From a virus (Duplodnaviria > Caudoviricetes), in IMG/VR virus record IMGVR_UViG_3300022208_000003, positions 1 through 62,177 of that record: DNA of 62,177 bases; one strand, 5' to 3'. Shown one piece after another: positions 24,866 through 62,177 of the stretch (position 1 is its first letter; every line of letters begins with the position of its first letter). The notes under the pieces are model-generated. The model saw nothing but the letters and a program-made list of their open reading frames with translations, did not search any database and had not been told where the DNA came from. The position numbers and the translations under genes were made by a program.

Positions 24866-25533
24866 TTTTTACCCCATAGAGCAGGTTCAACAAACGCTTT
24901 GACCATTTCTTCTCGATACTCAAGGCCTAACCATTTAATAACTTCTTCGATCTCACTGAAATCTCCACCTATCATCTTTGACGGCCAAACCTCACGAAGA
25001 TTCAGCCCGGCAATTTTCATTTGAGAGAAACGTTTTTCATGCTCTTCCACCCATCGCAACCAGCCAACAACATCACGGTAAGCCCGCATGAAGCTGGTCT
25101 GCATGCATGACCTTGCAATATCGTTTTTATCGCGGCGAACGATTATCCATTTAGCATCAGGAAAAGCCATATGCCAGAGCAGCCAGATAAGGCACATCTT
25201 CGCGCCTTTGTAGAAATACGGCCCACCCTTGTAACCTTCCTCGGAGAACACGGTCATCACCTTAGCTCGCCATCTATCAGCCTGTTCTTGGTTGACGTTG
25301 AATATCTGCTGTGTAGACGGTAGGGGTTTTTGCCCAAGCTGATCGCATTCTATTCCTTTTAGATAAGGCTTAACGATTGTCTGGCGGATGCGGTCATTTT
25401 CAAACATGCCCTTTTTGTTGTACTTGTTTGGCCCGTTCATCCTGCCGCCAAACGCACCACATACGTTTATTACTCCGGCGGTCATAGAGGTTCCGGACCG
25501 AGCAGCACCGGTTATAAGGATAGGGCTGTTCAT
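24862..25533 (-). CDS. Sulfotransferase-family (P-loop) protein
   Basis: ILITGAARSGTS 5'-PSB motif; IIVRR...IARS 3'-PB-like motif. Confidence 0.8.
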   Translation of the reverse strand: MNSPILITGAARSGTSMTAGVINVCGAFGGRMNGPNKYNKKGMFENDRIRQTIVKPYLKGIECDQLGQKPLPSTQQIFNVNQEQADRWRAKVMTVFSEEGYKGGPYFYKGAKMCLIWLLWHMAFPDAKWIIVRRDKNDIARSCMQTSFMRAYRDVVGWLRWVEEHEKRFSQMKIAGLNLREVWPSKMIGGDFSEIEEVIKWLGLEYREEMVKAFVEPALWGKK

Positions 25534-27947
25534 TTCCAGTACCTCTTTACGATATCAAGATGCTGCATGTTGTGGGGCTTTTGGTTGCCGTGGAAGCAGA
25601 TAATCTTTGCGTCCGGCGGCACACCTGTTGAGCAGTGTCTTTTATAGCTATGGATAGGCATAAAATCGTTGATTGGTTTTATATCGACTCCTGCTCCCTG
25701 TAAGGTGCGGAATATATAAACCTGGTCCCATCCTTTACCTTGCCGATGGTCCTTAAATTTATCGATTATATACCTGAAATCACCATGCCAAGCCATAACC
25801 CCTGAAGCCCAGTTACCAGCCCTTTTCCTTGCAGGGTTAAAAGGAACCAGCATTCTGAATTCGCCTTCAGGCATTTTCTTAACCGAGTCAACAAGCTCGG
25901 TGATATCGTCAATTATTACCGTATCAAGATCTATATAAAGGACCGGTCCTTTAAGCCTAAACAGCTCGAGCTTTGACCACCAGCCCTCAAGCTCGTTGAT
26001 AAGCTTTATACTATCTGTAAGGACATCTTCAGAGTCAGTAAAAGTCACAAAGTCGTATTTTGTTTTAACGAATCTATTTGCCATACTTTCAAGCTTTTCG
26101 GCATATAGATTATCAAATACTCCTCCGGTTTTAAGCACGCACGCGATAGTTACAGGAGAATTTCTCTTTATCAATTCTCCTGATTCGCATTTTCCAGTGA
26201 ATCTATTTACAGCCTGATTTATATCTACAACCGGTTTAACCTGTGGCGGCAACCTATCTGGCGGGTTAAGTTCTTTATTGTCATGATTGATCACGATTTG
26301 CCTTCTTTCGTAATCTTTCCCTTCAAGGATAGAGGTTGTAGTGTAAAGTAAGCTTTCAACTTCCAATCCTCTAGTATTTTCAATAAAATAAGTTTTGTTC
26401 TTTACATCGTCAGGTGCGCAATGCCAGGCGAATTGCCGATTATAGTAATCATTCCAGATTATCAATGTTTTCAAATTGAAACATGCAGCCGATATCGTAA
26501 GGCCTGACGGGTAACCGATAACCATTTCAGCACCACGCATGAGGCCGAAAAGCTTTTGAATCGTGGTCTTTCCTGTCAGATCAACGTATTCGGTTGTTTG
26601 CCTCATGACCTTTTGCAACCCAATGTCTTCTGAATCCCACTTCGCCCCTGTAAAAACTATGGTACAGCCTGTTTTTTGATGCAGTAAGTTTAAATATTCA
26701 GCTATTCGTGGGATTTCGAATTGTCTTGACCAGTAAGAATAAGTACCAAAAAGAGGCCAATAAACAACAATATACTTTCCATATATTTCTTGGCATTCTC
26801 GCTTGAAATTTTCTTGCTCAAGAGAAATGAACATTGGAGGGCGCCAGTTTGTTGCAAGGTCTTGGTCTATATCCTCCATCCTTTTGCCGATTCTAAGATG
26901 ACCGTTATATGAGATAAAAAAATCACATCCAAGTATATCCTTAAAGATCGTCCTGCCTTCCCTTGCGTATGCCTCGCGCCATATTTCTTTATGTGGTCCG
27001 TTTGCGTGTTTAACCTCTCCAGTTACGTTAAGGAAAGGGAACATCTCAAGGAACGGAAACGACCTCTTGTGTCCGTTATGAGCCTTATCTCTTGGTGAAG
27101 CGATAAAGACGTCAGGAAGCCCTAACTTTTCCCTCTCAAGAAAAGCCTGAAGCTTTGTTACCGACCAAAAAGAATCACCTAGTCCTGGAGGAAGTAGTAT
27201 TGTAGGCCTATCCTGGGAAGGTTTAGAGCAAAAGAAAACCACCTTTGACGATATAGGTTTCTTTATATTTTCTACCTTAAACCCCGCATCTTTCAGCAAT
27301 AGCTCGAGCTGTCCTGCGGTAAAATACCAAAGATGCTCCTTTTTCCAATGGTGCGCCCCGTCTTCCGCGTAAAAGTCCGGAATATCGATTATGCATGTAC
27401 CGCCTTGGTCGGTAACCCTGAACAGCTCGGCAATGAATGATTTGGGATCAAGCGTATGCTCAAGGACGTCATGGCAAGTTACGATTTTGAAGTGGTCTGT
27501 CGGGAAATGTATTTCCTCAAATTCTTTGCGATAAATGAATGAATTGTCTTTCAGGGAAGCGTAATCAGCTATCTCACAACCAAAAGCGGATGCACCTCTT
27601 GCCCGGCACTCATCAACAAAAGCCCCAGAGCCTGCCCCAACGTCAAGAATCCTCTCTTCAGCTCCGGAAATTATTCCGTATAGATTGCACCTTTTGCGTG
27701 CAAGTTTACGGTCATGCCCATAGCTCTTAGCCTGGTACTTTTTAGAAACAGGTTGATATTTTGAGTAAAACTTTATGGATTCACTTTTCGTGCAATAAGG
27801 AGGTGCTGTCTGGTGGATTACTCCACATTTTGAGCAGATCTCTACCGACATGTTATCTTTAGCCGGCACCGTCTCGCCTAACTCTGTAACCTCGTAATAT
27901 GGCCTTGTAGATCGCTCGGCCTTATCGTTTCCGCAAAAGCAATTCAT
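25530..27947 (-). CDS. Fusion of class I SAM methyltransferase, GT9-like (GT-B) and GT-A glycosyltransferase domains
   Basis: ILDVGAGSG and HDVLEH; GLGDS and DLTGKTT; WWSKLELF, YIDLD, DQ and CFHGNQKPH. Confidence 0.85.
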   Translation of the reverse strand: MNCFCGNDKAERSTRPYYEVTELGETVPAKDNMSVEICSKCGVIHQTAPPYCTKSESIKFYSKYQPVSKKYQAKSYGHDRKLARKRCNLYGIISGAEERILDVGAGSGAFVDECRARGASAFGCEIADYASLKDNSFIYRKEFEEIHFPTDHFKIVTCHDVLEHTLDPKSFIAELFRVTDQGGTCIIDIPDFYAEDGAHHWKKEHLWYFTAGQLELLLKDAGFKVENIKKPISSKVVFFCSKPSQDRPTILLPPGLGDSFWSVTKLQAFLEREKLGLPDVFIASPRDKAHNGHKRSFPFLEMFPFLNVTGEVKHANGPHKEIWREAYAREGRTIFKDILGCDFFISYNGHLRIGKRMEDIDQDLATNWRPPMFISLEQENFKRECQEIYGKYIVVYWPLFGTYSYWSRQFEIPRIAEYLNLLHQKTGCTIVFTGAKWDSEDIGLQKVMRQTTEYVDLTGKTTIQKLFGLMRGAEMVIGYPSGLTISAACFNLKTLIIWNDYYNRQFAWHCAPDDVKNKTYFIENTRGLEVESLLYTTTSILEGKDYERRQIVINHDNKELNPPDRLPPQVKPVVDINQAVNRFTGKCESGELIKRNSPVTIACVLKTGGVFDNLYAEKLESMANRFVKTKYDFVTFTDSEDVLTDSIKLINELEGWWSKLELFRLKGPVLYIDLDTVIIDDITELVDSVKKMPEGEFRMLVPFNPARKRAGNWASGVMAWHGDFRYIIDKFKDHRQGKGWDQVYIFRTLQGAGVDIKPINDFMPIHSYKRHCSTGVPPDAKIICFHGNQKPHNMQHLDIVKRYWK

Positions 27948-28585
27948 TAATATCTCGTTCTGGTTATGGTAAATTCTCTTATCTGCAAGGTTTCTCTTGC
28001 TTTACAGAGTTCAAATATCGTTTTCGCCGCTTCGGCAGGGTCTATCAGCTTGTCGTGATCTTCTCTGTTTTTTGTCATGTCTGTTGCCATAGCCCCGAGG
28101 TAGACATCAACTATCCTCCCCCCGGCTTCAGAAACGTCAATATTCAATGACTCTGACAACCCGCGTATTCCAAACTTGCTAGCGCAATACCCTGATTCAC
28201 CGTTACTTGCTGTCTTGCCGGCAAGGCTATTGATATTCACAAGCAGGCTGAGCGGCCAGAGCTTCTTAATAAGCAAAGACGGAATAACAAGGTTTGTTGC
28301 GAGGATGTAATCAAGCTCTGCTTCGCTTAGATTTTTAAACTTTTTATTCTCGTAAGCAGCTGCATTATTTATAAATATATCAATGTTCTGGTCATATATT
28401 TTTTTGAATAGGTCCTTTACGTTATCCCTGTTCCCAAAATCACCATAGACGTATTCTGCGCCATCTATCCTTGGTATTTCGTTTTTCCTAGCATGAAGCA
28501 CGAGCTCATATCTATTATCGTGGAATACTTTTGCCAATTCATGGCCGAGCCCACGTGATGCTCCTGTGATGAGAACCTTTTTCAT
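27947..28585 (-). CDS. SDR-family oxidoreductase
   Basis: TGASRGLG, NNAA and YCASK motifs. Confidence 0.92.
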   Translation of the reverse strand: MKKVLITGASRGLGHELAKVFHDNRYELVLHARKNEIPRIDGAEYVYGDFGNRDNVKDLFKKIYDQNIDIFINNAAAYENKKFKNLSEAELDYILATNLVIPSLLIKKLWPLSLLVNINSLAGKTASNGESGYCASKFGIRGLSESLNIDVSEAGGRIVDVYLGAMATDMTKNREDHDKLIDPAEAAKTIFELCKARETLQIREFTITRTRY

Positions 28586-28791
28586 TCGATAGCGCCTTTT
28601 GAATTTCCTATCGTTTTTACTATCTCATCACCCTGACCTTCAGTTATATAAATATCAACTTTAGCCATGAGAACATCTTCAGAATTGGCATCAATTACCA
28701 CTCTTCTGACCATTTCAGAATCTAAATTTAATATTTTGCATATTGATATCGCTGTTTTTTTGCCAATACATGGTAATTTTTTATCGTCCAT
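28582..28791 (-). CDS. Hypothetical protein
   Basis: 69 aa with RBS, coupled to the SDR gene. Confidence 0.6.
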   Translation of the reverse strand: MDDKKLPCIGKKTAISICKILNLDSEMVRRVVIDANSEDVLMAKVDIYITEGQGDEIVKTIGNSKGAIE

Positions 28792-28811
28792 TATTAATCC
28801 TTTTGGTTATT

Positions 28812-29294
28812 TCATATAAACGGGAGCCTATCGTTTTTGAGGCATATTACCGACGGGCCGCCATCGATGTAAGCATCAAGCATAGCCTTTTCTGTTTCGA
28901 AAGAATTGCGAGGGAAATAGCCTTTCGTGTTCTTCAACAAGGCAACCAATCCTTTTGCGTTAAGCGCTCTGTGTGATGCCCCTTGAGACGGATAATCATC
29001 GTTACCTATCAGCATGACCGGTAAATTTTGCTCGTCAACATCGAGTTTTATTTGTTCAAATGGTCTTTCAAGGAGAAACGGAGTAAGCGTATAAAATACC
29101 GGCCTCAATCCTTCCGATGCCATGCCGGCGGCAATGCTCATCGTTGATTGTTCGGTGAGTCCAAAATTATAAAAACGATCAGGAAACCTCGTTTTAAACT
29201 CATCCATTTCCTGATGGACGTCACATGTCAGAAGTACAATTCTTTCATTCTTCTCGGCAAGGTGAACTATGGTTTTCCCGAACTGTCGCCTCAT
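28812..29294 (-). CDS. Split transketolase-like enzyme, pyrimidine-binding subunit (short)
   Basis: FPDRFYNFGLTEQ...AAGMA..GLRP...RPFEQIKLD...GASH. Confidence 0.9.
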   Translation of the reverse strand: MRRQFGKTIVHLAEKNERIVLLTCDVHQEMDEFKTRFPDRFYNFGLTEQSTMSIAAGMASEGLRPVFYTLTPFLLERPFEQIKLDVDEQNLPVMLIGNDDYPSQGASHRALNAKGLVALLKNTKGYFPRNSFETEKAMLDAYIDGGPSVICLKNDRLPFI

Positions 29295-30038
29295 GACAAT
29301 TCCTCCATAGCCTTATTCTTTTGCCATCCACTCGGCCAGCATGCATGCCACGCCGGATTATTTTCCATGAACGATACCCCTGCACCCTTTACGGTCCTGG
29401 CGGCTATTATGTTTGGGCTATCATACGTCTTGCTTAACTCCTCTCTGAGCTGCTCGATATCATGTCCGTCAACGATTGAGTAATTCCACCCGGCAGACTC
29501 AAAAACACTCCACACAGACCTTAACGGGAGAACGTTGTTTATCTCGCCAGATCCCTGTATATTGTTCCAGTCAACTATCACGCAAAGATTATCAAGGTTG
29601 TATTTTGCCGCGATCAGCATTGATTCCCAGGTTGTCCCCTCCTGGAGCTCTCCGTCTCCCATGAGCACGTAAACAATGCCTTCCTCGCCTTTTTGCTTCT
29701 TGGCCATTGCAACACCTATTCCGAGCGGCAAGCCATGGCCTAGGCTTCCAGTGGTAAACAGTACGCCGTTATGCGGGTCTCTTGACGGGTGTCCGGTAAG
29801 GCGTGGGTTAAATCCTTTCTCCCGGAGAATTACGTACCATGGCCAGCATGAATGGCCTTTTGAGAGGATAAACCTATCTTCAGCAGAAAGAGCCCCTTCG
29901 TAAAGAGCCCTAAGGATCTCAACGCAAGAGAATGAACCGCCGAAGTGATATCCACCGTTTGCAAGGGCAAGCTCAATTGTCTCTCGTCGCAATCTCTTTG
30001 AACGGTCGTCTAATTTAACAGTCCCTGAATAATTCACT
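29291..30038 (-). CDS. Split transketolase-like enzyme, ThDP-binding subunit
   Basis: DRFILSKGH, TGSLGHG and GDGELQEG...NN ThDP motif; start uncertain (ORF track gives 30103). Confidence 0.9.
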
Positions 30039-30836
30039 GTTCCACGCTGATATTGGGTAGTAGTTGATAACGTCAGGCCTATCAGTTTTGTTTGGCCTAT
30101 CAAGACTTGTCGGAAACTTATCTCTGCTCTCTGTTACCTCACCGACAAGATCTTTTCTCACAAGACTAAGCTCTAAAAGAGGAGGGAAAGACCATGCGTC
30201 AAGATTTACCATCTGAAGAGAGTTATTCGCATGTATATGGAATATATGAAAGTTTTCAAGTATTTTATCAATTCCAGCATTATATTTTTGGAATATATCG
30301 ATATTGCATTGTTCGAAAAAGTCTCCGATTATCATGTGAAAATAAGGAGAATGTCCGTTCTCTTTATGCTCGACATGAAAGACGTGCATTTCAATCAATA
30401 TCTGGCTGAATCTCTTTAGGTCTTCAGCCTTGATCTCTCTCAATAACTCCCATTCATGGCATTCAATATCTACTTTGAGGAGAGAATTGCCGGTATGCTC
30501 TTTGAACCCTTCAGGGTATAGCTGATTCGCGTATTTCTTTATATGTACAAATTTGTCGTTTACTTCAGGTAACTTTTGTATTGTCGGATCACAGAGTAAG
30601 CATGATGTAGTATTAGGAAATCTATATAAAAAATCAGCCTCAAAAGAGACGTCGTTACCAACACCAAAAGTCATTATCTTTTCAGTTTTGTCGCATATCT
30701 CTTTTAATGCGACATACCCGCCATCGTTAGGACCACCTATACGGGTCTTTGTCAATCCGACATCAACAACGGATATCTTTCTGAAGAAATCGCCAATAGG
30801 CCGCATATCAGCCATTAATTCATCTCCACAATGCAT
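30015..30836 (-). CDS. FkbM/Methyltransf_22-like methyltransferase
   Basis: RIGGPNDGGY, FGVGNDVSFE, LKVDIECHEW, QILIEMH, HIHANN. Confidence 0.85.
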   Translation of the reverse strand: MHCGDELMADMRPIGDFFRKISVVDVGLTKTRIGGPNDGGYVALKEICDKTEKIMTFGVGNDVSFEADFLYRFPNTTSCLLCDPTIQKLPEVNDKFVHIKKYANQLYPEGFKEHTGNSLLKVDIECHEWELLREIKAEDLKRFSQILIEMHVFHVEHKENGHSPYFHMIIGDFFEQCNIDIFQKYNAGIDKILENFHIFHIHANNSLQMVNLDAWSFPPLLELSLVRKDLVGEVTESRDKFPTSLDRPNKTDRPDVINYYPISAWNSELFRDC

Positions 30837-31822
30837 CTCCCGGCTTTACCGGTGCGCATGGTTGCTATTGCTTGGTTAATATCATCGAGTTGGAAGCGAT
30901 TGGTTATCATTTTTGATAATTCAAATCGTCCTTCCCGGTACATCTGAAGATAACGGTTTATATCTTTGTCAGGGTCAGTGAGCCCTCCTTGGCTATCGAG
31001 TATCGTCTTTCCGCAGTAATGCTGCCGTGCGTTTGAGAAAACAATATCAGCTCCTGTGTAAGGCTGTCCAACAAGGATAAGCTTGCCTCCCGGTTTGACC
31101 ATTTTGAGCCCCTGTTCAATGACAAGGCAGTTCCCGGTACAATCAACGAAAACGTCAACAGGTCGTTCCCAGAATTTATTCTCGCTCCTAACTGTTTTTG
31201 TTGCACCGAACTCCTCCGCCATTTCTAGCTTTTCATCGTGGATATCGATTGCCACTATCCGTCCGGCGCCAACAAGCTTTGCCCCCTGGATCACGTTAAG
31301 CCCAACACCACCAACTCCGGCAACCGCGATTGACTGGCCTATCTTAAGCTTTGCCTCGTTATTGATAAGCCCAAACCCGGTAGTAACAGCGCAGCCCATG
31401 AGTGCCCCTATATCGGCAGGGATATCGTGCCCTATTTTGGTAACTCTGTTTTCGGAAACAATAGCTGATGTAGCAAAGGTGGCGATAGGGCCAGAGCCGA
31501 CGTTGAGCTTGTTGCTGCTCTTGTATCGTGCCGGCACCGCATCTATTCCAGATCCCTTACGCCAGTGCATGACAACACGATCACCTTTCTCAACCTTGCG
31601 TACACCTCCTCCGACTCCCATTACTCTCCCGCAACCTTCATGCCCGAGCATGTGCGGCAAGTACGGGTCAGCTCCGGCAGCTCCTGTTATCTCGCCTATC
31701 TGAGCACCACAGATACCAGAGGCTTCAATCCTGACAAGAACCTGCCCCTCCATTATTTCCTGAGGTTCAAGTTCCATGACTTGGAGTGGAGAATTTTGTT
31801 CAACCAATACTGCGGCTCTCAC
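30815..31822 (-). CDS. Zn-dependent (MDR) alcohol/sugar dehydrogenase
   Basis: GICG, GHEG, GCAVTTG and GVGGVG motifs; lacks the four-Cys structural-Zn lobe. Confidence 0.9.
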   Translation of the reverse strand: MRAAVLVEQNSPLQVMELEPQEIMEGQVLVRIEASGICGAQIGEITGAAGADPYLPHMLGHEGCGRVMGVGGGVRKVEKGDRVVMHWRKGSGIDAVPARYKSSNKLNVGSGPIATFATSAIVSENRVTKIGHDIPADIGALMGCAVTTGFGLINNEAKLKIGQSIAVAGVGGVGLNVIQGAKLVGAGRIVAIDIHDEKLEMAEEFGATKTVRSENKFWERPVDVFVDCTGNCLVIEQGLKMVKPGGKLILVGQPYTGADIVFSNARQHYCGKTILDSQGGLTDPDKDINRYLQMYREGRFELSKMITNRFQLDDINQAIATMRTGKAGRCIVEMN

Positions 31823-32466
31823 AAAGTGTCCTCCAGTTTGACTTTCTGGAATTGCTCAATCAGAGAAACCGGTGAGCAGTTTAGGATTTCAATTCCTAAA
31901 GCTTTAGCATCTTCCGCGATTTTATCGAAATGTCGAAGATATCGTTTAAATGGATGGTGCAACGGGTCTTCGTAGCCGTAATCAGAATGAAAATTCTTGT
32001 TTTTATCAACGATTCTCATGTCAAATCCAAGAAGAACGATTCTTTTTACACCGAACCAAAACGCGATATTTATTGCGCTTGAGCCTGAATTTCCGTTCCA
32101 TGATATGCGGTCTCGCCTTGATGATTCGAGTCCGCTCGGCTTGCCTCGGGTAACCCTTTTTACCCCAGGCCATCCGTGATCAGGGACGCGACCACAGCTT
32201 GATATCTTGAGGCCTTTGTATTCAAGTAGGTCTTTCCTGATCGCTGAATATAGCGAGCAATCTCCGAAGTAAACCACGTCAACCCAAGGATAGTATCGAA
32301 AGGCAACGTTTACTCCTATCGTGCGCTGATCTTGCAACGGGGAAAGATCCTGATCTTTTAAAGATGGACCACCGCCGATGATATACGCTGTCTCGCCAGA
32401 CCAGATAGGAGGAATTTTAAACGGCTGCCGTGGGGTAAAATCGACTTGCCTTTTTGCAGCCGTCAT
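31819..32466 (-). CDS. DUF115/Maf-like (sialyltransferase-fold) glycosyltransferase
   Basis: IIGGGPSL, IGVN, NSG, IVLLGFD and ILNCS motifs. Confidence 0.75.
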   Translation of the reverse strand: MTAAKRQVDFTPRQPFKIPPIWSGETAYIIGGGPSLKDQDLSPLQDQRTIGVNVAFRYYPWVDVVYFGDCSLYSAIRKDLLEYKGLKISSCGRVPDHGWPGVKRVTRGKPSGLESSRRDRISWNGNSGSSAINIAFWFGVKRIVLLGFDMRIVDKNKNFHSDYGYEDPLHHPFKRYLRHFDKIAEDAKALGIEILNCSPVSLIEQFQKVKLEDTL

Positions 32467-48819: not shown

Positions 48820-49314
48820 TTACAGTTCCTTCTTGTAATTTTCGATTCGTTTGATGTAGTTGATTGTCTCCTCTGCATGCCTACCTGTTACTTTTGGCAA
48901 AACCTCCGCCAAACTCTCCCATTTATCAGGAATATTGGCTAGCTTCTGGGCTTTGAGGATGTTGCCAAGGCCAGCGTTGTAAGAGGCAAACATGTAGCGG
49001 ATTCGTTCCAAACCTTTTTCCGCCTTCCATATATCGTATATTCGGCGGTCGTAATAAATACCGGCAGTTATATTGATAGCCGGGTCATAGGGATCATTCC
49101 TTAGCCCAAGTGAGCTGCGGATCTCCTGCCATGTAAACGGCATGAGCTGCATTAGCCCCATTGCTCCTACCGGACTTACGGCACTCGGATTAAGACTACT
49201 CTCTGCTAATGCTTGGGCTTTAAACCACTTCCAGCCAATATTGGTATCTTTGAAATAACTGCTTGCTGTCATGGTAAAAAACCAATCATATTGAGTAGTA
49301 TAGTTTTCTCTCAT
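48820..49314 (-). CDS. SLT-family lytic transglycosylase (probable endolysin)
   Basis: AES..NPSAVSPVGAMGLMQLMP and ASYNAG. Confidence 0.92.
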   Translation of the reverse strand: MRENYTTQYDWFFTMTASSYFKDTNIGWKWFKAQALAESSLNPSAVSPVGAMGLMQLMPFTWQEIRSSLGLRNDPYDPAINITAGIYYDRRIYDIWKAEKGLERIRYMFASYNAGLGNILKAQKLANIPDKWESLAEVLPKVTGRHAEETINYIKRIENYKKEL

Positions 49315-57955: not shown

Positions 57956-58537
57956 TTAATTCATCCTCATAACCCCACCATTGCCGCCATCAAAAACAAG
58001 AGGGATCACCCCTTGCTCGTTATGCGGAAAAAACAGCTTTGCATTTGGGAGGTTTTTGCATAAATCAACCAAACATTCTGCAATCATGGTTCCTTCTATT
58101 ACTATTGCCGAATATTTTCCGAAATGTGATCCTTCCCCGTTGCAATCTTCGCATTTTATTGAGTCGCCTGGAATTTTGCCCCATTCATGGCAAGTTTTGC
58201 AATCACACCAATATTCATGATATCCGCTGGTAAAATTAATCTGTCCTTCTCCGTCGCACTCGTAGCAATTATCTACTTTTCCAGAACCATTACATGTCCT
58301 GCATTTAATCTTTTCTCTTAGTTTTATTTCTGAAACGTTTACCCACCTTCCCTCTTTGTCAGGGTTGATATTGATTTCTCTTACCGGGGGAGCTTCCTGA
58401 TTTTCTGCATATCTCTCATCTCTCGGCACCGATATAAGCATGTTCCCATTTGTGGCATACGTTCTATCGTCTATGCTCCAAGGTTTTTCAATAAATGGAC
58501 GCTCTCTATCGCAAAAAAGCTCTAAATCTATAACCAT
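57956..58537 (-). CDS. Protein with DnaJ-type CxxCxGxG zinc-finger repeats
   Basis: CRTCNGSG, CYECDGEG, CKTCHEWG, CEDCNGEG. Confidence 0.8.
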   Translation of the reverse strand: MVIDLELFCDRERPFIEKPWSIDDRTYATNGNMLISVPRDERYAENQEAPPVREININPDKEGRWVNVSEIKLREKIKCRTCNGSGKVDNCYECDGEGQINFTSGYHEYWCDCKTCHEWGKIPGDSIKCEDCNGEGSHFGKYSAIVIEGTMIAECLVDLCKNLPNAKLFFPHNEQGVIPLVFDGGNGGVMRMN

Positions 58538-58538
58538 C

Positions 58539-58793
58539 TCATTCTTCCTCCGGAAAAAATATCTTCCCATCGCCGTCAAGAATATCCTTGGCAGTTATCA
58601 AGTCGAATCCTTCACCTCCTGCAGATTCGAATTCGGCCTTCATTTCACCAAGAAAATAACGACACATCTCAAGCGTGAAATCCCAATCTGCTGCCTCGCT
58701 ATCAATGTGTTTTATGATCTCTTCAGACTGCTCTCTATCCATATTAGAGACAACCTCTTTTATATCAAGTTCTACATTGCACCATGTTTTCAC
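58539..58793 (-). CDS. Hypothetical protein
   Basis: 84 aa with GGAGG RBS. Confidence 0.7.
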   Translation of the reverse strand: MKTWCNVELDIKEVVSNMDREQSEEIIKHIDSEAADWDFTLEMCRYFLGEMKAEFESAGGEGFDLITAKDILDGDGKIFFPEEE

Positions 58794-59055
58794 TTCATAT
58801 CCTCCATCTCTTTTCTCCTATTGAATCCTCTTAGGCTTTATCCTAATCAAACCGTGCCATTTTACCACCCACCTCTCCATGCTATCGCACCCATAACCTC
58901 TAGGTTCGTAGCTTTCAGGCATAAATCCATAACAAGCAAAACACTTTACTCTCGTGCAATATTCTTCGGAGAGATCGTCTTCGTCGTCGTATAGCATTGA
59001 GCAGGTATCATTTGTGATACTTCTTGTGTGGTCATTTCCTCACTTCTTTATCCGT

Positions 59056-59445
59056 TTATTTTGATTCGGTATTTTGGCTCTTCTGGTTTTCCTTTTCCTT
59101 TGCTATCCTTTGGGCTTCTTTAAGTATATTTTCCGATTTTTCCATGCTCATTCCAGTAGACCCCATCCATCCTCCAATTAGCGCCATCAGAAAATCGAAT
59201 CTGAATTCCGCTTTCTCCATGATATTCTTGTTCTCCGATTCCAGGGAGGAGAGTTTGTTTAAAATCATTGACTCTGTTTCTTCCACCTGAATAAAATTTA
59301 AGTCCGTCTGTTCGTCCAGTTTTGTTAAATTGGATTCCAAGTTTGCTATTCTCTCTATTATTTTCGCTTCCCTTTCTCGCTCCTTATTGTGGAGTTCCTT
59401 CCAGGATTCTTCAACAACTTTACGGTCTTGTTCCGATATGTCCAT
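59056..59445 (-). CDS. Coiled-coil protein, paralog of the nested ORF 60149-60634
   Basis: Shares KLSSLE, ESENK and ENQKSQNTE, with exact DNA blocks. Confidence 0.7.
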   Translation of the reverse strand: MDISEQDRKVVEESWKELHNKEREREAKIIERIANLESNLTKLDEQTDLNFIQVEETESMILNKLSSLESENKNIMEKAEFRFDFLMALIGGWMGSTGMSMEKSENILKEAQRIAKEKENQKSQNTESK

Positions 59446-59449
59446 TTCC

Positions 59450-59848
59450 TCACTCCTCTATCCGTTTTTCTTCCATTGATTTCATAAGCCCGCCACTCAT
59501 ATCCATAATCTTCTTGCCGCGCTGCTCGTATTTCTCAGCGTATTTTTCGGCAAGCATTTGAACGTCTGATTTAAGGGCTATCCCCCACATCAAGTGTCCG
59601 TTTGCATCTATTCCTTGAGGGTAATAGCCATGTTCCTCCCTAAGCATCGAATAAAGCAAAGCAACACGTGACAACTCATCATCAGATAGTTGACATTTTT
59701 TCTCGTATTTGTTAGATTGTTTTTCCGAATAGTATTTGTAATGCGTTTCCAGCAGGTACATATCCTCCTGCGTTATTGCCTGCTGAGGCGTTTTCTTTGT
59801 GCTCACCAGAGGAGGTCTCTCGTAACAAGGGGTTTCCGTATTTTTCAT
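59450..59848 (-). CDS. Hypothetical protein overlapping the rep 3' end
   Basis: 132 aa with AAGGA RBS. Confidence 0.65.
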   Translation of the reverse strand: MKNTETPCYERPPLVSTKKTPQQAITQEDMYLLETHYKYYSEKQSNKYEKKCQLSDDELSRVALLYSMLREEHGYYPQGIDANGHLMWGIALKSDVQMLAEKYAEKYEQRGKKIMDMSGGLMKSMEEKRIEE

Positions 59849-61445
59849 AGATTTCCTTCTTCATCTCCTCTTTGCTTTTAAAACGCCGTTTTTGAGACGA
59901 TTGACTTTCCATGGGGTAATCCTCCCACCTTCTATCAGTCAACCAACCTTGACACCATTTTGGCGTTCCTCCACGCTGTATGATGCCGTCCCTCTCCCAC
60001 GCTTCTTTTTTGGCGGCGTAAATTATCCACTTTGCCTTTTCAGGGGAATAATCTTTTATGTCCAGCCAAGAGTCGGCGGCTGCGGCTTTTCCTTTCTTGT
60101 AGTCGAATGCGATCCAGAATTCTTCGAAGTCGGCAAGACGTTGTCCTTTTAGCCAGCGGTTCTTTTTGGTTCGGTATTTTGGCTCTTCTGGTTTTCCTCC
60201 AGCATCTCCTGATATTTTTCCTCCGCATTCCCGAATAAATTCTCTGTCGGGATTTGTATCTCCTCCGCCAAGGCAGATATCAGGCACGCAACCTTTACTT
60301 TCTCCGTTTCCTGGTTTTTTATCCTCCTCTCCGCATCCTGTAAGGCTTGGTCCATACGTTTCATCACTACCGTATGAATTTTTACAGTTTTGATCTCCAT
60401 TTCCAGTTCTGCAATCCTTTCTTCTTGCTCCTTCATTTCCTTCCATGCCGCATCCAGCCCCCTGCGGAGTTCCTTGTTCTCCGATTCCAGCTCTTCTCCC
60501 ATCTCTTCCAGACAGTTTATTCTCTTCAGCGCTTCCCTTGCCTCTCCTTTCATCTCCTCTTGTTCCAACTCCAGGGAGGAGAGTTTTGCTTCCAGGTTGT
60601 TGATTGCCATCACAAATGCATTTCCGCTTCCCATTGCCTATTCCTCCGTCCTTATCGTTGACTTCGTTGTTGTTGCTGTCATTTTCATAATCTAAGGTGA
60701 TTGTTATTTCGTTTGGTACTTTTCCAAAACCTCTATCGCCTTGTCCTGATATTCCGACGCTTGATGTTGGATCTTTTCTGTCCTTTCTATCAGCTTCCCA
60801 AGTTCTATATCGTGCTTGATCGTTATGGCTATCGCAATCAGTAGAACTATGGTCAGGCATATGTTTGCTATTTCCATTTTCATCCTCGATAGTGAGATTG
60901 GCTGATTCGGGTACCGAATCGGCTATATTATCTTTTAAAGAAGGAGAAGGAGAAGGAACAGGGGATGGAGTAGGAGTAGGAGATGGGGCATTGCCCTCCG
61001 CATCGATCCGCATGCCATCAGCATCATTCTGCAATGCATCCCGCATGCCCTCCGCATTATCATCAAGATTTTCCTCTATTTTTTTCTCTTTCTTTCTCCA
61101 TCTTACTAAAGCTGCCTTTCTTGCTAGTTCTGATCTTTCGTCAGCATGGAATGCATAACTTTGATGCTCTTTCCAGTCATGTATATAATAAACACCTTCT
61201 TTGAAATCCATGAATCCTATATCGACAAGGGCATCACAAAATTGTTTTGGATCTCCACCCCAATTCGCATCCATTGCGATATCTTCATGATCCATATCTT
61301 TAAGTATGCCCTTAGGTTTATTTACGGCCACACTTAACCATAAATCTATCAGAGATAAGACAGCAGTCTTTCCCAATCTTGATTCGAGTTTTTTACGTTT
61401 ACGATGGGTTAAAAACGACGTTTGCAGTCTTATATCTGTGTTCAT
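59712..61445 (-). CDS. Phage replication initiator / replisome organiser
   Basis: N-terminal wHTH-like region (LIDLW...YYIHDWKEHQ), PSP linker, C-terminal FEEFW..F..KKGK..A...W...QGWL..RRWED; ATGA-coupled to the HTH gene. Confidence 0.82.
   Translation of the reverse strand: MNTDIRLQTSFLTHRKRKKLESRLGKTAVLSLIDLWLSVAVNKPKGILKDMDHEDIAMDANWGGDPKQFCDALVDIGFMDFKEGVYYIHDWKEHQSYAFHADERSELARKAALVRWRKKEKKIEENLDDNAEGMRDALQNDADGMRIDAEGNAPSPTPTPSPVPSPSPSLKDNIADSVPESANLTIEDENGNSKHMPDHSSTDCDSHNDQARYRTWEADRKDRKDPTSSVGISGQGDRGFGKVPNEITITLDYENDSNNNEVNDKDGGIGNGKRKCICDGNQQPGSKTLLPGVGTRGDERRGKGSAEENKLSGRDGRRAGIGEQGTPQGAGCGMEGNEGARRKDCRTGNGDQNCKNSYGSDETYGPSLTGCGEEDKKPGNGESKGCVPDICLGGGDTNPDREFIRECGGKISGDAGGKPEEPKYRTKKNRWLKGQRLADFEEFWIAFDYKKGKAAAADSWLDIKDYSPEKAKWIIYAAKKEAWERDGIIQRGGTPKWCQGWLTDRRWEDYPMESQSSQKRRFKSKEEMKKEIYEKYGNPLLRETSSGEHKENASAGNNAGGYVPAGNALQILFGKTI
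60149..60634 (-). CDS. Nested out-of-frame coiled-coil protein
   Basis: 161 aa with its own GGAGG RBS, heptad E/K-rich composition, and a paralog at 59056. Confidence 0.65.
   Translation of the reverse strand: MGSGNAFVMAINNLEAKLSSLELEQEEMKGEAREALKRINCLEEMGEELESENKELRRGLDAAWKEMKEQEERIAELEMEIKTVKIHTVVMKRMDQALQDAERRIKNQETEKVKVACLISALAEEIQIPTENLFGNAEEKYQEMLEENQKSQNTEPKRTAG
60704..60883 (-). CDS. Nested out-of-frame TM-anchored protein (59 aa)
   Basis: MKMEIANICLTIVLLIAIAITIKHDIELGKLIERTEKIQ...*; GAGG RBS; same frame as 60149-60634. Confidence 0.5.
   Translation of the reverse strand: MKMEIANICLTIVLLIAIAITIKHDIELGKLIERTEKIQHQASEYQDKAIEVLEKYQTK
60988..61058. other. Putative iteron-containing replication origin inside rep
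   Basis: Repeated tgccctccgcat and ccgcatgcc units next to a purine-skewed tract, as in lambdoid O-type genes. Confidence 0.5.
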
Positions 61446-61630
61446 GCAGCTTTTTCCGAGATAAGAGGTTTCATCTTTTCTTTTATACCTATTGCTGTCA
61501 AATCCGGTATGCGTTGTCTTCCAGCTTCCCACCCGCAATACCCACTTATAGATACCCCAAGATGGTTGGCCATTTCCTGCTGAGTGAGCTCTGCCCTTCC
61601 CCTTAATTCTTTTAGATCTTCTCCGGTCAA
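61442..61630 (-). CDS. XRE-family HTH protein (Cro-like)
   Basis: LKELR..AELTQQEMANHLGVS......WEAG...IP; AGGAGG RBS, TTG start. Confidence 0.88.
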   Translation of the reverse strand: MTGEDLKELRGRAELTQQEMANHLGVSISGYCGWEAGRQRIPDLTAIGIKEKMKPLISEKAA

Positions 61631-61674
61631 TTAAATCACCTCCTTTTTTAGAATTAATTAATAATAGCATATTT

Positions 61675-61743
61675 TAGTAGTCAGTCAACAAAAAAATAGC
61701 CCGGCATTTCCGGCGCCGGGGCTCCGTTGTGGTAAGAATCAGC
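61675..61743 (-). repeat. Variant cassette repeat: hairpin terminator whose TTGACT acts as the -35 of the HTH/rep promoter
   Basis: cccggcgccggaaatgccgggc-tattttttt-gttgact, then TTGACT-16-TATTAT with an extended TG. Confidence 0.75.
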
Positions 61744-62058
61744 CTAAACCCAACCCTTTTCGAGAGTCAATAGCCGTCTTGAGCTCATTTGTTTTTGTAA
61801 TATGCGGTACCATGCAGGCCATTTTGACACTGCCCCAGGCATCCCAGGGAGTAACTTGCAATAAAACGCCATGCACCTGTAACCAATCTCAGGATTGTGA
61901 GCTGGAGCAAAAAAACCAAATTGCAGTCCATGCCAACCTTTAGGCATGAATCCTTGGCCTATAAAAACTGCTGTGTATCTGATCTGCATGCGCAGTAAAG
62001 TATTGGCGCACTGTCCACTTATTACGTTTTTGTCAATAATGATAAAACGATTCATCAT
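61744..62058 (-). CDS. Hypothetical protein (cassette gene)
   Basis: Starts ATGATG inside the repeat; ends before the variant repeat. Confidence 0.6.
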   Translation of the reverse strand: MMNRFIIIDKNVISGQCANTLLRMQIRYTAVFIGQGFMPKGWHGLQFGFFAPAHNPEIGYRCMAFYCKLLPGMPGAVSKWPAWYRILQKQMSSRRLLTLEKGWV

Positions 62059-62177
62059 CCCCTCCGTTGTAGTAGTCAACAAAAAATAGCCCGGCATTTC
62101 CGGCGCCGGGGAGCTATGTCGTTGTAAAAATCAGCATTTAACCGAAAAGCTCAGTAATTGTATTGCCAATATAGTGT
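62051..62177. repeat. 127-bp terminal overlap with 58-184 (circular assembly junction)
   Basis: Direct sequence identity; 127 is a common assembler k-mer size. Confidence 0.93.

Follow-up and report, generated by a model that had tools for sequence, protein, structure and literature searches.

Open reading frames nested in the predicted disordered spacer of a phage replication initiator gene: a probable case of same-strand dual coding

We analysed the virus record IMGVR_UViG_3300022208_000003 (Duplodnaviria; Caudoviricetes) over its full 62,177 bp, hereafter called the window, and studied its replication initiator gene (rep), the two domains of which are separated by a 240-codon insertion. 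The rep frame is stop-free across this insertion beyond chance. The same strand carries further open reading frames (ORFs) in the +1 frame, the longest of which is 161 aa. Sequence comparison and structure prediction with AlphaFold2 (AF2) argue that this is probably same-strand dual coding, in which a single 577-aa rep chain would be made together with independently initiated +1 ORFs lying in the DNA of its spacer. Dual coding is well supported for the 161-aa ORF by its comparison with a relative, and is plausible but weaker for a second nested ORF of 59 aa. Nearly all genes of the window lie on the minus strand, and they include a tailed-phage set with a tape-measure protein, a portal, a large terminase, head proteins, an Erf-type annealing protein, an exonuclease and an endolysin-like gene.

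The initiator gene and the open frame of its insertion

The four minus-strand ORFs listed by the first-pass annotation were all recovered, namely a rep frame at 59712..61670 (652 aa from the first ATG) and the 161-, 59- and 132-aa ORFs of Table 1. The rep frame is open as described, but its real start is the ATG at 61445, which gives 577 aa; a gene caller also returned this form, and the 652-aa form results from extending the open frame upstream. The ATG at 61445 overlaps the TGA of the upstream helix-turn-helix (HTH) gene as ATGA, and rep has no Shine-Dalgarno sequence (SD) of its own. The HTH gene starts with TTG, 8 nt behind the SD AAGGAGG, and upstream of it lie a terminator-like hairpin (61720-61700) and then a promoter-like site (61688-61661). 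The locus is the beginning of an early operon.

Table 1. Position of rep, its insertion and the surrounding features in the window
Feature	Position	Strand	Evidence and remarks
Replication initiator (rep, P0001), 577 aa	59712..61445	-	PHROG profiles, homologue alignment, AF2
XRE-type HTH gene, 62 aa	61442..61630	-	Pfam HTH_31, 34.6 bits against a cut-off of 27
Insertion of 240 codons, rep residues 183-422	60180..60899	-	Stop-free; predicted disordered
Palindrome (hairpin), 12 pairs	60899..60925	.	In the DNA for KDNIADSVPES, just upstream of the first nested start
Nested +1 ORF, 59 aa	60704..60883	-	ORF and cassette boundaries; N-terminal hydrophobic helix, then amphipathic helix
Mini-ORF, +1 frame, 16 aa	60638..60688	-	TAG 3 nt before the ATG of the 161-aa ORF; matching frame visible in L001
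Nested +1 ORF, 161 aa	60149..60634	-	Conservation in L001, AF2, SD; long-helix (coiled-coil-like) protein
ORF in the same +1 frame, 132 aa	59450..59848	-	Overlaps the last 137 nt of rep; SD AAGGA
Free-standing coiled-coil ORF, 129 aa	59056..59445	-	Weak paralogue of the 161-aa ORF (BLASTP E=0.001-0.016)

PHROG initiator profiles matched rep at its ends only (phrog_9474 at 4.3e-22, phrog_2447 at 2e-11 and phrog_3926 at 8.9e-9 in the N part, phrog_270 at 5.8e-7 in the C part), and Pfam and NCBIfam searches with rep gave no match. AF2 modelled the N-domain confidently; its best structural match was 4pta_D, a multidrug-resistance (MDR) plasmid initiator (Z 6.2, 91 aligned residues, root-mean-square deviation 3.3), followed by the DnaD N-domain 2vn2 (Z 5.5), both with middling scores. 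The C-domain is shared with bona fide initiators: in P0033 it follows phage_O_Nterm (TIGR01610, 46.5 bits against a cut-off of 45.5), and precomputed Pfam assignments place it after PF13730 in P0031 and after PF04492 in P0033. It occurs with several different N-domains and also alone at 146-149 aa (P0028 and P0029, from a search for shorter proteins). No ATG, GTG or TTG lies near its start in rep.

Along the chain, rep consists of an N-domain (residues ~1-142), a Pro/Ser linker (152-169), the junction motif KDNIADSVPESA (171-182), the insertion (183-422) and the C-domain (from 423), and it ends in a conserved ALQILFG tail. The terminal ALQILFGKTI (residues 568-577, window 59715-59744) is kept in P0002-P0004 as ALQILFGG, ALQVLFGK and PLEILFGK, behind a tail that has diverged, and the 132-aa ORF uses the same DNA in the +1 frame. 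Presumably it resembles the beta-clamp-binding motif QL[SD]LF.

Homologues of rep were collected from 5.8 billion proteins (26 matches), and 12 were aligned. The insert was present in four of them (P0001-P0004), and the other eight run from the Pro/Ser linker straight into the C-domain. In P0033 the motif KDNIADSPES stands 5 residues before the C-domain and in the window the same motif stands 240 codons before it, which is why the insertion was placed at residues 183-422. A comparable insert was found at none of the 79 viral loci encoding this C-domain, where the longest open frames were upstream extensions or, at locus L067, a repeat-rich linker. The first-pass annotation had asked whether the linker is an insertion; against both homologues and viral loci it is one, with a span of 240 codons (60899-60180) instead of ~245.

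The linker had also been described as looking off-frame. This was not borne out, as the rep-frame codon score within the insert is +0.27 to +0.30 bits per codon, as in ordinary genes. Its sense strand is T-poor (16% T). In the AF2 model of rep, 10-residue blocks have a predicted local distance difference test score (pLDDT) of 30-46 through the insert except for one block at 64, and both flanking domains are confident. Together with the absence of a rep-synonymous excess in the comparison below, this agrees with the earlier view of a tolerant linker; in the rep frame the insert appears to be a disordered spacer without amino-acid-level constraint.

The openness of the rep frame was tested with the other-frame protein as reference, by shuffling synonymous codons, by shuffling codon order, and by re-encoding the fixed nested protein with the phage's own codon usage in 20000 draws and counting rep-frame stops. 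With the 161-aa protein fixed, the synonymous-codon shuffle brought a mean of 3.5 rep-frame stops (P(zero)=0.009) and the codon-order shuffle 7.4 (0/20000 stop-free). Re-encoding brought a mean of 11.2 stops for the 161-aa ORF (0/20000 stop-free), 11.9 for its copy in L001, the relative introduced below (1/20000), and 4.4 for the 59-aa ORF (P=0.0035). The free-standing 129-aa paralogue has four stops in the equivalent frame. The T-poor sense strand does not account for the open rep frame. All three interpretable length changes among the insert variants listed in the next section are multiples of 3. These results strongly support the prediction that rep is translated as a single chain across the insert.

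The nested ORFs in the +1 frame

Blastn found no close DNA relatives among GenBank phages, and tblastn with P0003 gave only a distant DnaD-like N-domain match in two Staphylococcus phage records. No relative carrying the insert was found in viral contigs or genome contigs; metagenome contigs gave one locus, L001, a 3.9-kb contig that served as the single relative for all DNA comparisons of the nested ORFs. It holds an intact rep (1119-2606) and an intact 161-aa +1 ORF (1693-2178) with length, start and stop unchanged, so that the +1 frame is free of stops in this one relative. Its rep is P0002-like with a different DnaD-like N-domain, and is near-identical to that of the window from the KDNIADSVPES junction on. 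Because the match begins only there, the junction, the nested ORFs and the C-domain would travel as one module. Within the 161-aa ORF, a 75-nt block shows 41% identity between the window and L001, is of equal length, and is open in both frames in both genomes.

Every window/L001 substitution was classed by its effect in the rep frame and in the +1 frame, the kind of frame-specific check that the first-pass annotation had called for. The conserved insert blocks (360 sites, one pairwise comparison) hold 23 differences. Eleven of them are +1-synonymous, against 20-27% expected (P=0.0025-0.024 for kappa 1-4), and 5/23 are rep-synonymous, against 24-29% expected (not significant). The adjoining C-domain holds 19 differences, 15 of them rep-synonymous and two +1-synonymous. 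Since a +1-synonymous excess in the insert stands against a rep-synonymous excess in the C-domain, the insert edge appears to be where amino-acid-level selection passes over from one frame (rep) to the other (+1). Purifying selection on the 161-aa ORF is supported by this comparison.

The 161-, 59- and 132-aa ORFs lie in one common frame, +1 relative to rep. Codon scores in this frame were +0.19 bits per codon for the 161-aa ORF and +0.15 for the 59-aa ORF, and all 45 other phage genes scored -0.15 or less in their own +1 frame. A +1 open run of at least 100 codons occurred in none of 26 other window genes (maximum 98). The hydrophobicity of the 161-aa product shows a 3.5-residue periodicity (power 7.63 versus a null of 3.36 +/- 1.30 under rep coding, P=0.009), and AF2 predicted one long helix over residues 4-126 with a mean pLDDT of 87 (block means 88-98 from residue 11). 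The first-pass annotation had given each nested ORF an SD of its own. This is right for the 161-aa ORF, which follows GGAGG at 8 nt, a strength reached by ~10% of all minus-strand ATGs; the 59-aa ORF has just AGGA, 5 nt before its second ATG. A match to the 161-aa ORF in 1.84 billion proteins, the only one there (838 aa, six stretches, E=4e-8), was taken as coiled-coil composition and set aside.

The hydrophobic stretch of the 59-aa ORF has P=0.023 given the rep protein. This ORF behaves as a 195-nt presence/absence cassette, which runs from its ATG to 15 nt beyond its stop and is flanked by 21-nt direct repeats (60875-60895 / 60680-60700) that include the ATG. Exactly these 195 nt, with the ORF, are missing from L001. 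Length variants were also taken from contigs of other sequencing runs (X2, X3, X4 and X7), and the counts given here cover the variants listed. The same absence, with the joint 60679>60875, was seen in one contig each of runs X3 and X4, which belong to another study. One of these two contigs also swaps 365 nt of the 161-aa ORF for 140 other letters (net 225 nt). In a further X4 variant, 99 nt are swapped for 27 (net 72), and most of the rest of this 553-nt contig does not resemble the window. Read by hand, the 27 letters contain a rep-frame stop and leave the +1 frame open and in phase, so that this variant may be a free-standing paralogue and not a rep insert. Two X7 joints, 60490>60570 (skipping 79) and 60595>60873 (skipping 277), are uninterpretable, having short sides and intervening letters that are not known. 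An X2 joint (59467>60164, skipping 696 with one letter between) was rejected as an insert variant, because the 129-aa ORF, with its paralogous 3' end, accounts for it. The earlier claim of same-strand dual coding is thus well founded for the conserved 161-aa ORF and weaker for the 59-aa ORF, which is absent from L001 and two contigs. The 16-aa mini-ORF between them may take part in translational coupling.

Several DNA features surround the insert. The palindrome at 60899-60925 differs from L001 only in its loop and sits at the meeting point of the shared module with the N-domain modules, in which the window and L001 differ; it may be a recombination or regulatory site. Short direct repeats of the ATGCGG type occur on the sense strand at 60996-61060, where rep codes for the residues just ahead of the Pro/Ser linker; as origin repeats they are weak candidates at most. 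In the low-GC relative L067 (2395-3639), the rep linker is full of repeated Asn/Gln/Lys-rich units, with a stretch of ~24 residues that recurs when a second frame is read. Probably this initiator gene, like that of lambda, contains an array of iterons.

Alternative explanations and the origin of the nested ORFs

Under dual coding, a two-domain initiator with a winged-helix-like N-domain and a conserved C-domain would be made as a single chain of 577 aa, with its start coupled through ATGA to the HTH gene upstream. This chain would cross the 240-codon insertion, which in the rep frame would be a mere disordered spacer constrained mainly to lack stops. In the +1 frame, the spacer DNA would encode a 59-aa membrane anchor, the 16-aa mini-ORF and a 161-aa long-helix protein, initiated independently of rep and translated from their own ribosome-binding sites. 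The nested units would be swapped as cassettes via short repeats containing the start codon, and only length changes in multiples of three would survive, because the C-domain has to stay in frame. At a guess, made with low confidence, the nested products could be early accessory proteins that the phage can do without and that act at the membrane, for instance in taking over the host or in exclusion.

A number of observations speak against this reading. The selection test is one pairwise comparison with 23 differences. Given the rep protein, a +1 run of at least 162 codons has P=0.08 by synonymous shuffle, 0.016 by codon order and 0.11 by re-encoding, and the composition of the spacer itself favours an open +1 frame, because +1 stops need rep codons with T in second position, which are rare in a hydrophobic-poor spacer. 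A local-window periodicity test was not significant (P=0.11), and a confident AF2 model for a Glu/Lys/Leu-rich helix is no proof of a real protein. None of 107 candidates from the 5.8 billion proteins was a homologue of the 161-aa ORF, and viral and genome contigs yielded none either; little weight attaches to this, because gene finders rarely call nested ORFs. For the 59-aa ORF, the SD is weak, no DNA relative carries the ORF, and its rep-frame openness has P=0.13 and 0.06 by the two shuffles. Neither nested ORF matched Pfam, NCBIfam or PHROG above threshold, and in the ESM Atlas both fell in unnamed clusters only, with recognition of 1868 and 2026, below the 2300 mark.

As an alternative, only rep may be translated, the insert being an expanded purine-rich, hydrophobic-poor disordered linker and the +1 ORFs by-products of its composition. 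Such an explanation is favoured by the mildly unusual +1 openness (P=0.08-0.11), a rep codon score in the insert (+0.27 to +0.30) above that of the +1 frame, the missing homologues of the 161-aa ORF, the low language-model recognition and the non-significant local periodicity. It is contradicted by the ratio of synonymous changes (11/23 in the +1 frame versus 5/23 in the rep frame), which is the reverse of that in the neighbouring C-domain, and by a positive +1 codon score unlike that of 45/45 other genes. Nor does it fit the global helical periodicity (P=0.009), the start and stop of the 161-aa ORF kept across a 41%-identity block, the cassette indel that coincides with +1 ORF boundaries, or the strong SD before the 161-aa ORF. 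We consider it unlikely.

Conversely, rep could in effect be split, with the nested genes as the sole functional products, an N-domain bearing a meaningless tail, a C-domain either dispensable or otherwise made, and the open frame a leftover. Other lineages have proteins of 146-149 aa that consist of the C-domain alone (P0028, P0029), so that a stand-alone function may be possible. However, in two genomes the rep frame lacks stops to a degree far beyond chance, length variants preserve the frame, and the C-domain, with 15/19 rep-synonymous differences, has no start codon near its beginning. The four homologues with different inserts are also single open frames, although the search was biased in returning long proteins only. 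A split rep is therefore judged very improbable. The least probable of the explanations considered is that the insert is kept for a function at the DNA or RNA level, such as an origin inside the initiator gene, with the open frames secondary. The lambda arrangement, in which the origin lies in the linker-coding part of gene O, is established knowledge, and the repeat arrays in the L067 rep linker, the palindrome at the junction (60899-60925) and the ATGCGG-type repeats just upstream of the insert (60996-61060) would suit it. Against it, no iteron-like family was found in the insert (60180-60899), just two-copy matches of 10-24 nt. In 60100-61250 as a whole the repeats found were likewise of two copies, the best of them of 20 nt (61008-61027 / 61041-61060). 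Furthermore, the three-base periodicity of substitutions is tied to the +1 frame, which points to protein coding and not to a binding-site array, and the insert is missing from most homologues.

Dual coding leaves two routes by which the nested ORFs may have arisen, birth in place and capture, which we hold to be about equally probable. Birth in place is favoured by the better rep-frame codon score and by the lack of outside homologues, and capture by the cassette-like indels and by the absence of the insert from most homologues. The first-pass annotation had spoken of an operon fragment, which would imply capture from elsewhere, but birth in place is at least as probable: no free-standing homologue was found outside the phage, and the conserved start of the C-domain (KYRTKKNRWL) shares its DNA with the last ~10 codons of the 161-aa ORF. 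This part of the 161-aa ORF is thus overprinted on rep sequence of ancestral origin. At its own 3' end, the 129-aa ORF repeats the junction of the 161-aa ORF with the C-domain (a 40-nt repeat, 59054-59093 / 60159-60198, at 93% identity; 34/35 nt in local alignment), and this 34/35-nt identical end takes in rep C-domain codons in its -1 frame. We infer that it was copied from the nested gene and not the reverse.

Neighbouring features, known systems and significance

The overlap of the 132-aa ORF with the 3' end of rep, in the frame of the nested ORFs, was confirmed in the window and has a counterpart in L001, whose homologue of 123 aa overlaps the rep end by 122 nt. Against L001, the overlap shows 6 synonymous and 24 non-synonymous codon changes in rep and 7 and 26 in the +1 frame; both frames diverge fast, which makes it uninformative. 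The 129-aa ORF, which L001 lacks, lies between 30-nt repeats (59033-59062 / 59443-59472).

Repeats are found elsewhere in the window as well. A 23-nt sequence occurs in four perfect copies (63-85, 306-328, 936-958 and 62056-62078), with 0 expected by chance, and a 142-nt repeat lies near the start of the record (1-142 / 244-385). The copy at 62056-62078 (minus strand) spans the SD and start codon of the ORF there, and a similar protein stretch opens an L001 ORF (MTTTTEGMM...). The 23-nt copies look like boundary sequences for the exchange of small-gene cassettes, and exchange through boundary repeats that contain a start would then be customary in this phage. That copies of the sequence lie at both ends hints at a circularly permuted record. 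Identical 31-nt terminator-like hairpins (61691-61721 and 62081-62111, minus strand) flank a 117-aa ORF (61744-62097), a moron-like cassette just upstream of the early promoter. The 207-aa early protein at 57956-58579 contains a zinc-finger region of the DnaJ type (CXXCXGXG), which with 27.5 bits stays under the Pfam cut-off of 32.7; the protein matches phrog_37414, whose function is unknown. The region 25530-32466, which lies between head genes and tail genes, holds glycosyltransferase, methyltransferase, FabG-like reductase, alcohol-dehydrogenase and sialyltransferase-like genes, and may be a phage-borne module for surface-sugar modification.

Nested out-of-frame genes are classical in phages. 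In phiX174, a 5.4-kb single-stranded DNA phage, genes B and K are nested in gene A and the overlap covers structured parts of the A protein. The present locus would likewise have out-of-frame genes in a replication initiator gene, but with an overlap restricted to an inserted spacer that is predicted to be disordered. In initiators of the lambda O type, the linker-coding region carries the origin, an iteron array. Here too a two-domain initiator would have a second kind of information in its linker-coding DNA, but it consists of ORFs in the +1 frame, and the insert yielded no iterons.

Two further comparisons are drawn from published accounts. The spacer of the hepatitis B virus (HBV) polymerase overlaps preS/S, and in apple stem grooving virus (ASGV) the movement protein overlaps a polyprotein linker, both with asymmetric constraint (PMC8227390). 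Functionally, these two come closest to the locus: an other-frame gene lies in the inter-domain spacer of a replication protein, with the linker frame free and the nested frame constrained. Those are small eukaryotic viruses under strong genome-size pressure, whereas the present case concerns a 62-kb tailed double-stranded DNA phage with several such ORFs, at least one of them a presence/absence cassette. The asymmetry here, measured on 23 substitutions, is modest. The embedded spanin genes Rz/Rz1 of lambda form a functional pair in the lysis cassette (PMC5295617, PMC6139136). They share with our locus a complete +1-frame gene wholly inside a same-strand gene of a tailed phage. They differ in that the enclosing gene here is a replication initiator in an early operon, and in that the first 40 residues of the 161-aa ORF include no Cys, so that a lipobox is absent. 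A spanin identity was rejected, since the endolysin-like gene (48820-49314) lies ~11 kb away and the 161-aa ORF lacks an N-terminal Cys or lipobox. A limited literature search found no title or abstract describing genes nested in the linker of a tailed-phage replication initiator.

If the dual-coding reading holds, the locus would be a clear natural asymmetric overlap in a large double-stranded DNA phage, where genome-size pressure is not an obvious explanation, and would show that a protein spacer can be selected just for being open. Gene finders forbid long same-strand overlaps, and genes of this kind are in consequence missing from protein databases; the nested ORFs described here have no database entry, though L001 carries one of them. 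A wider idea, which we regard as doubtful though conceivable, is that disordered joints of initiators are a recurrent landing pad or birthplace for small other-frame accessory genes, with start-carrying repeat cassettes exchanged as long as the initiator stays in frame. Were it true, accessory genes, possibly for anti-defence or exclusion, would be hidden in an essential early gene, where they would be co-transcribed at once, hard to delete and invisible to annotation pipelines. If the linkers of essential genes commonly hide exchangeable small genes, phage gene counts and searches for anti-defence and host-takeover functions would systematically miss a class.

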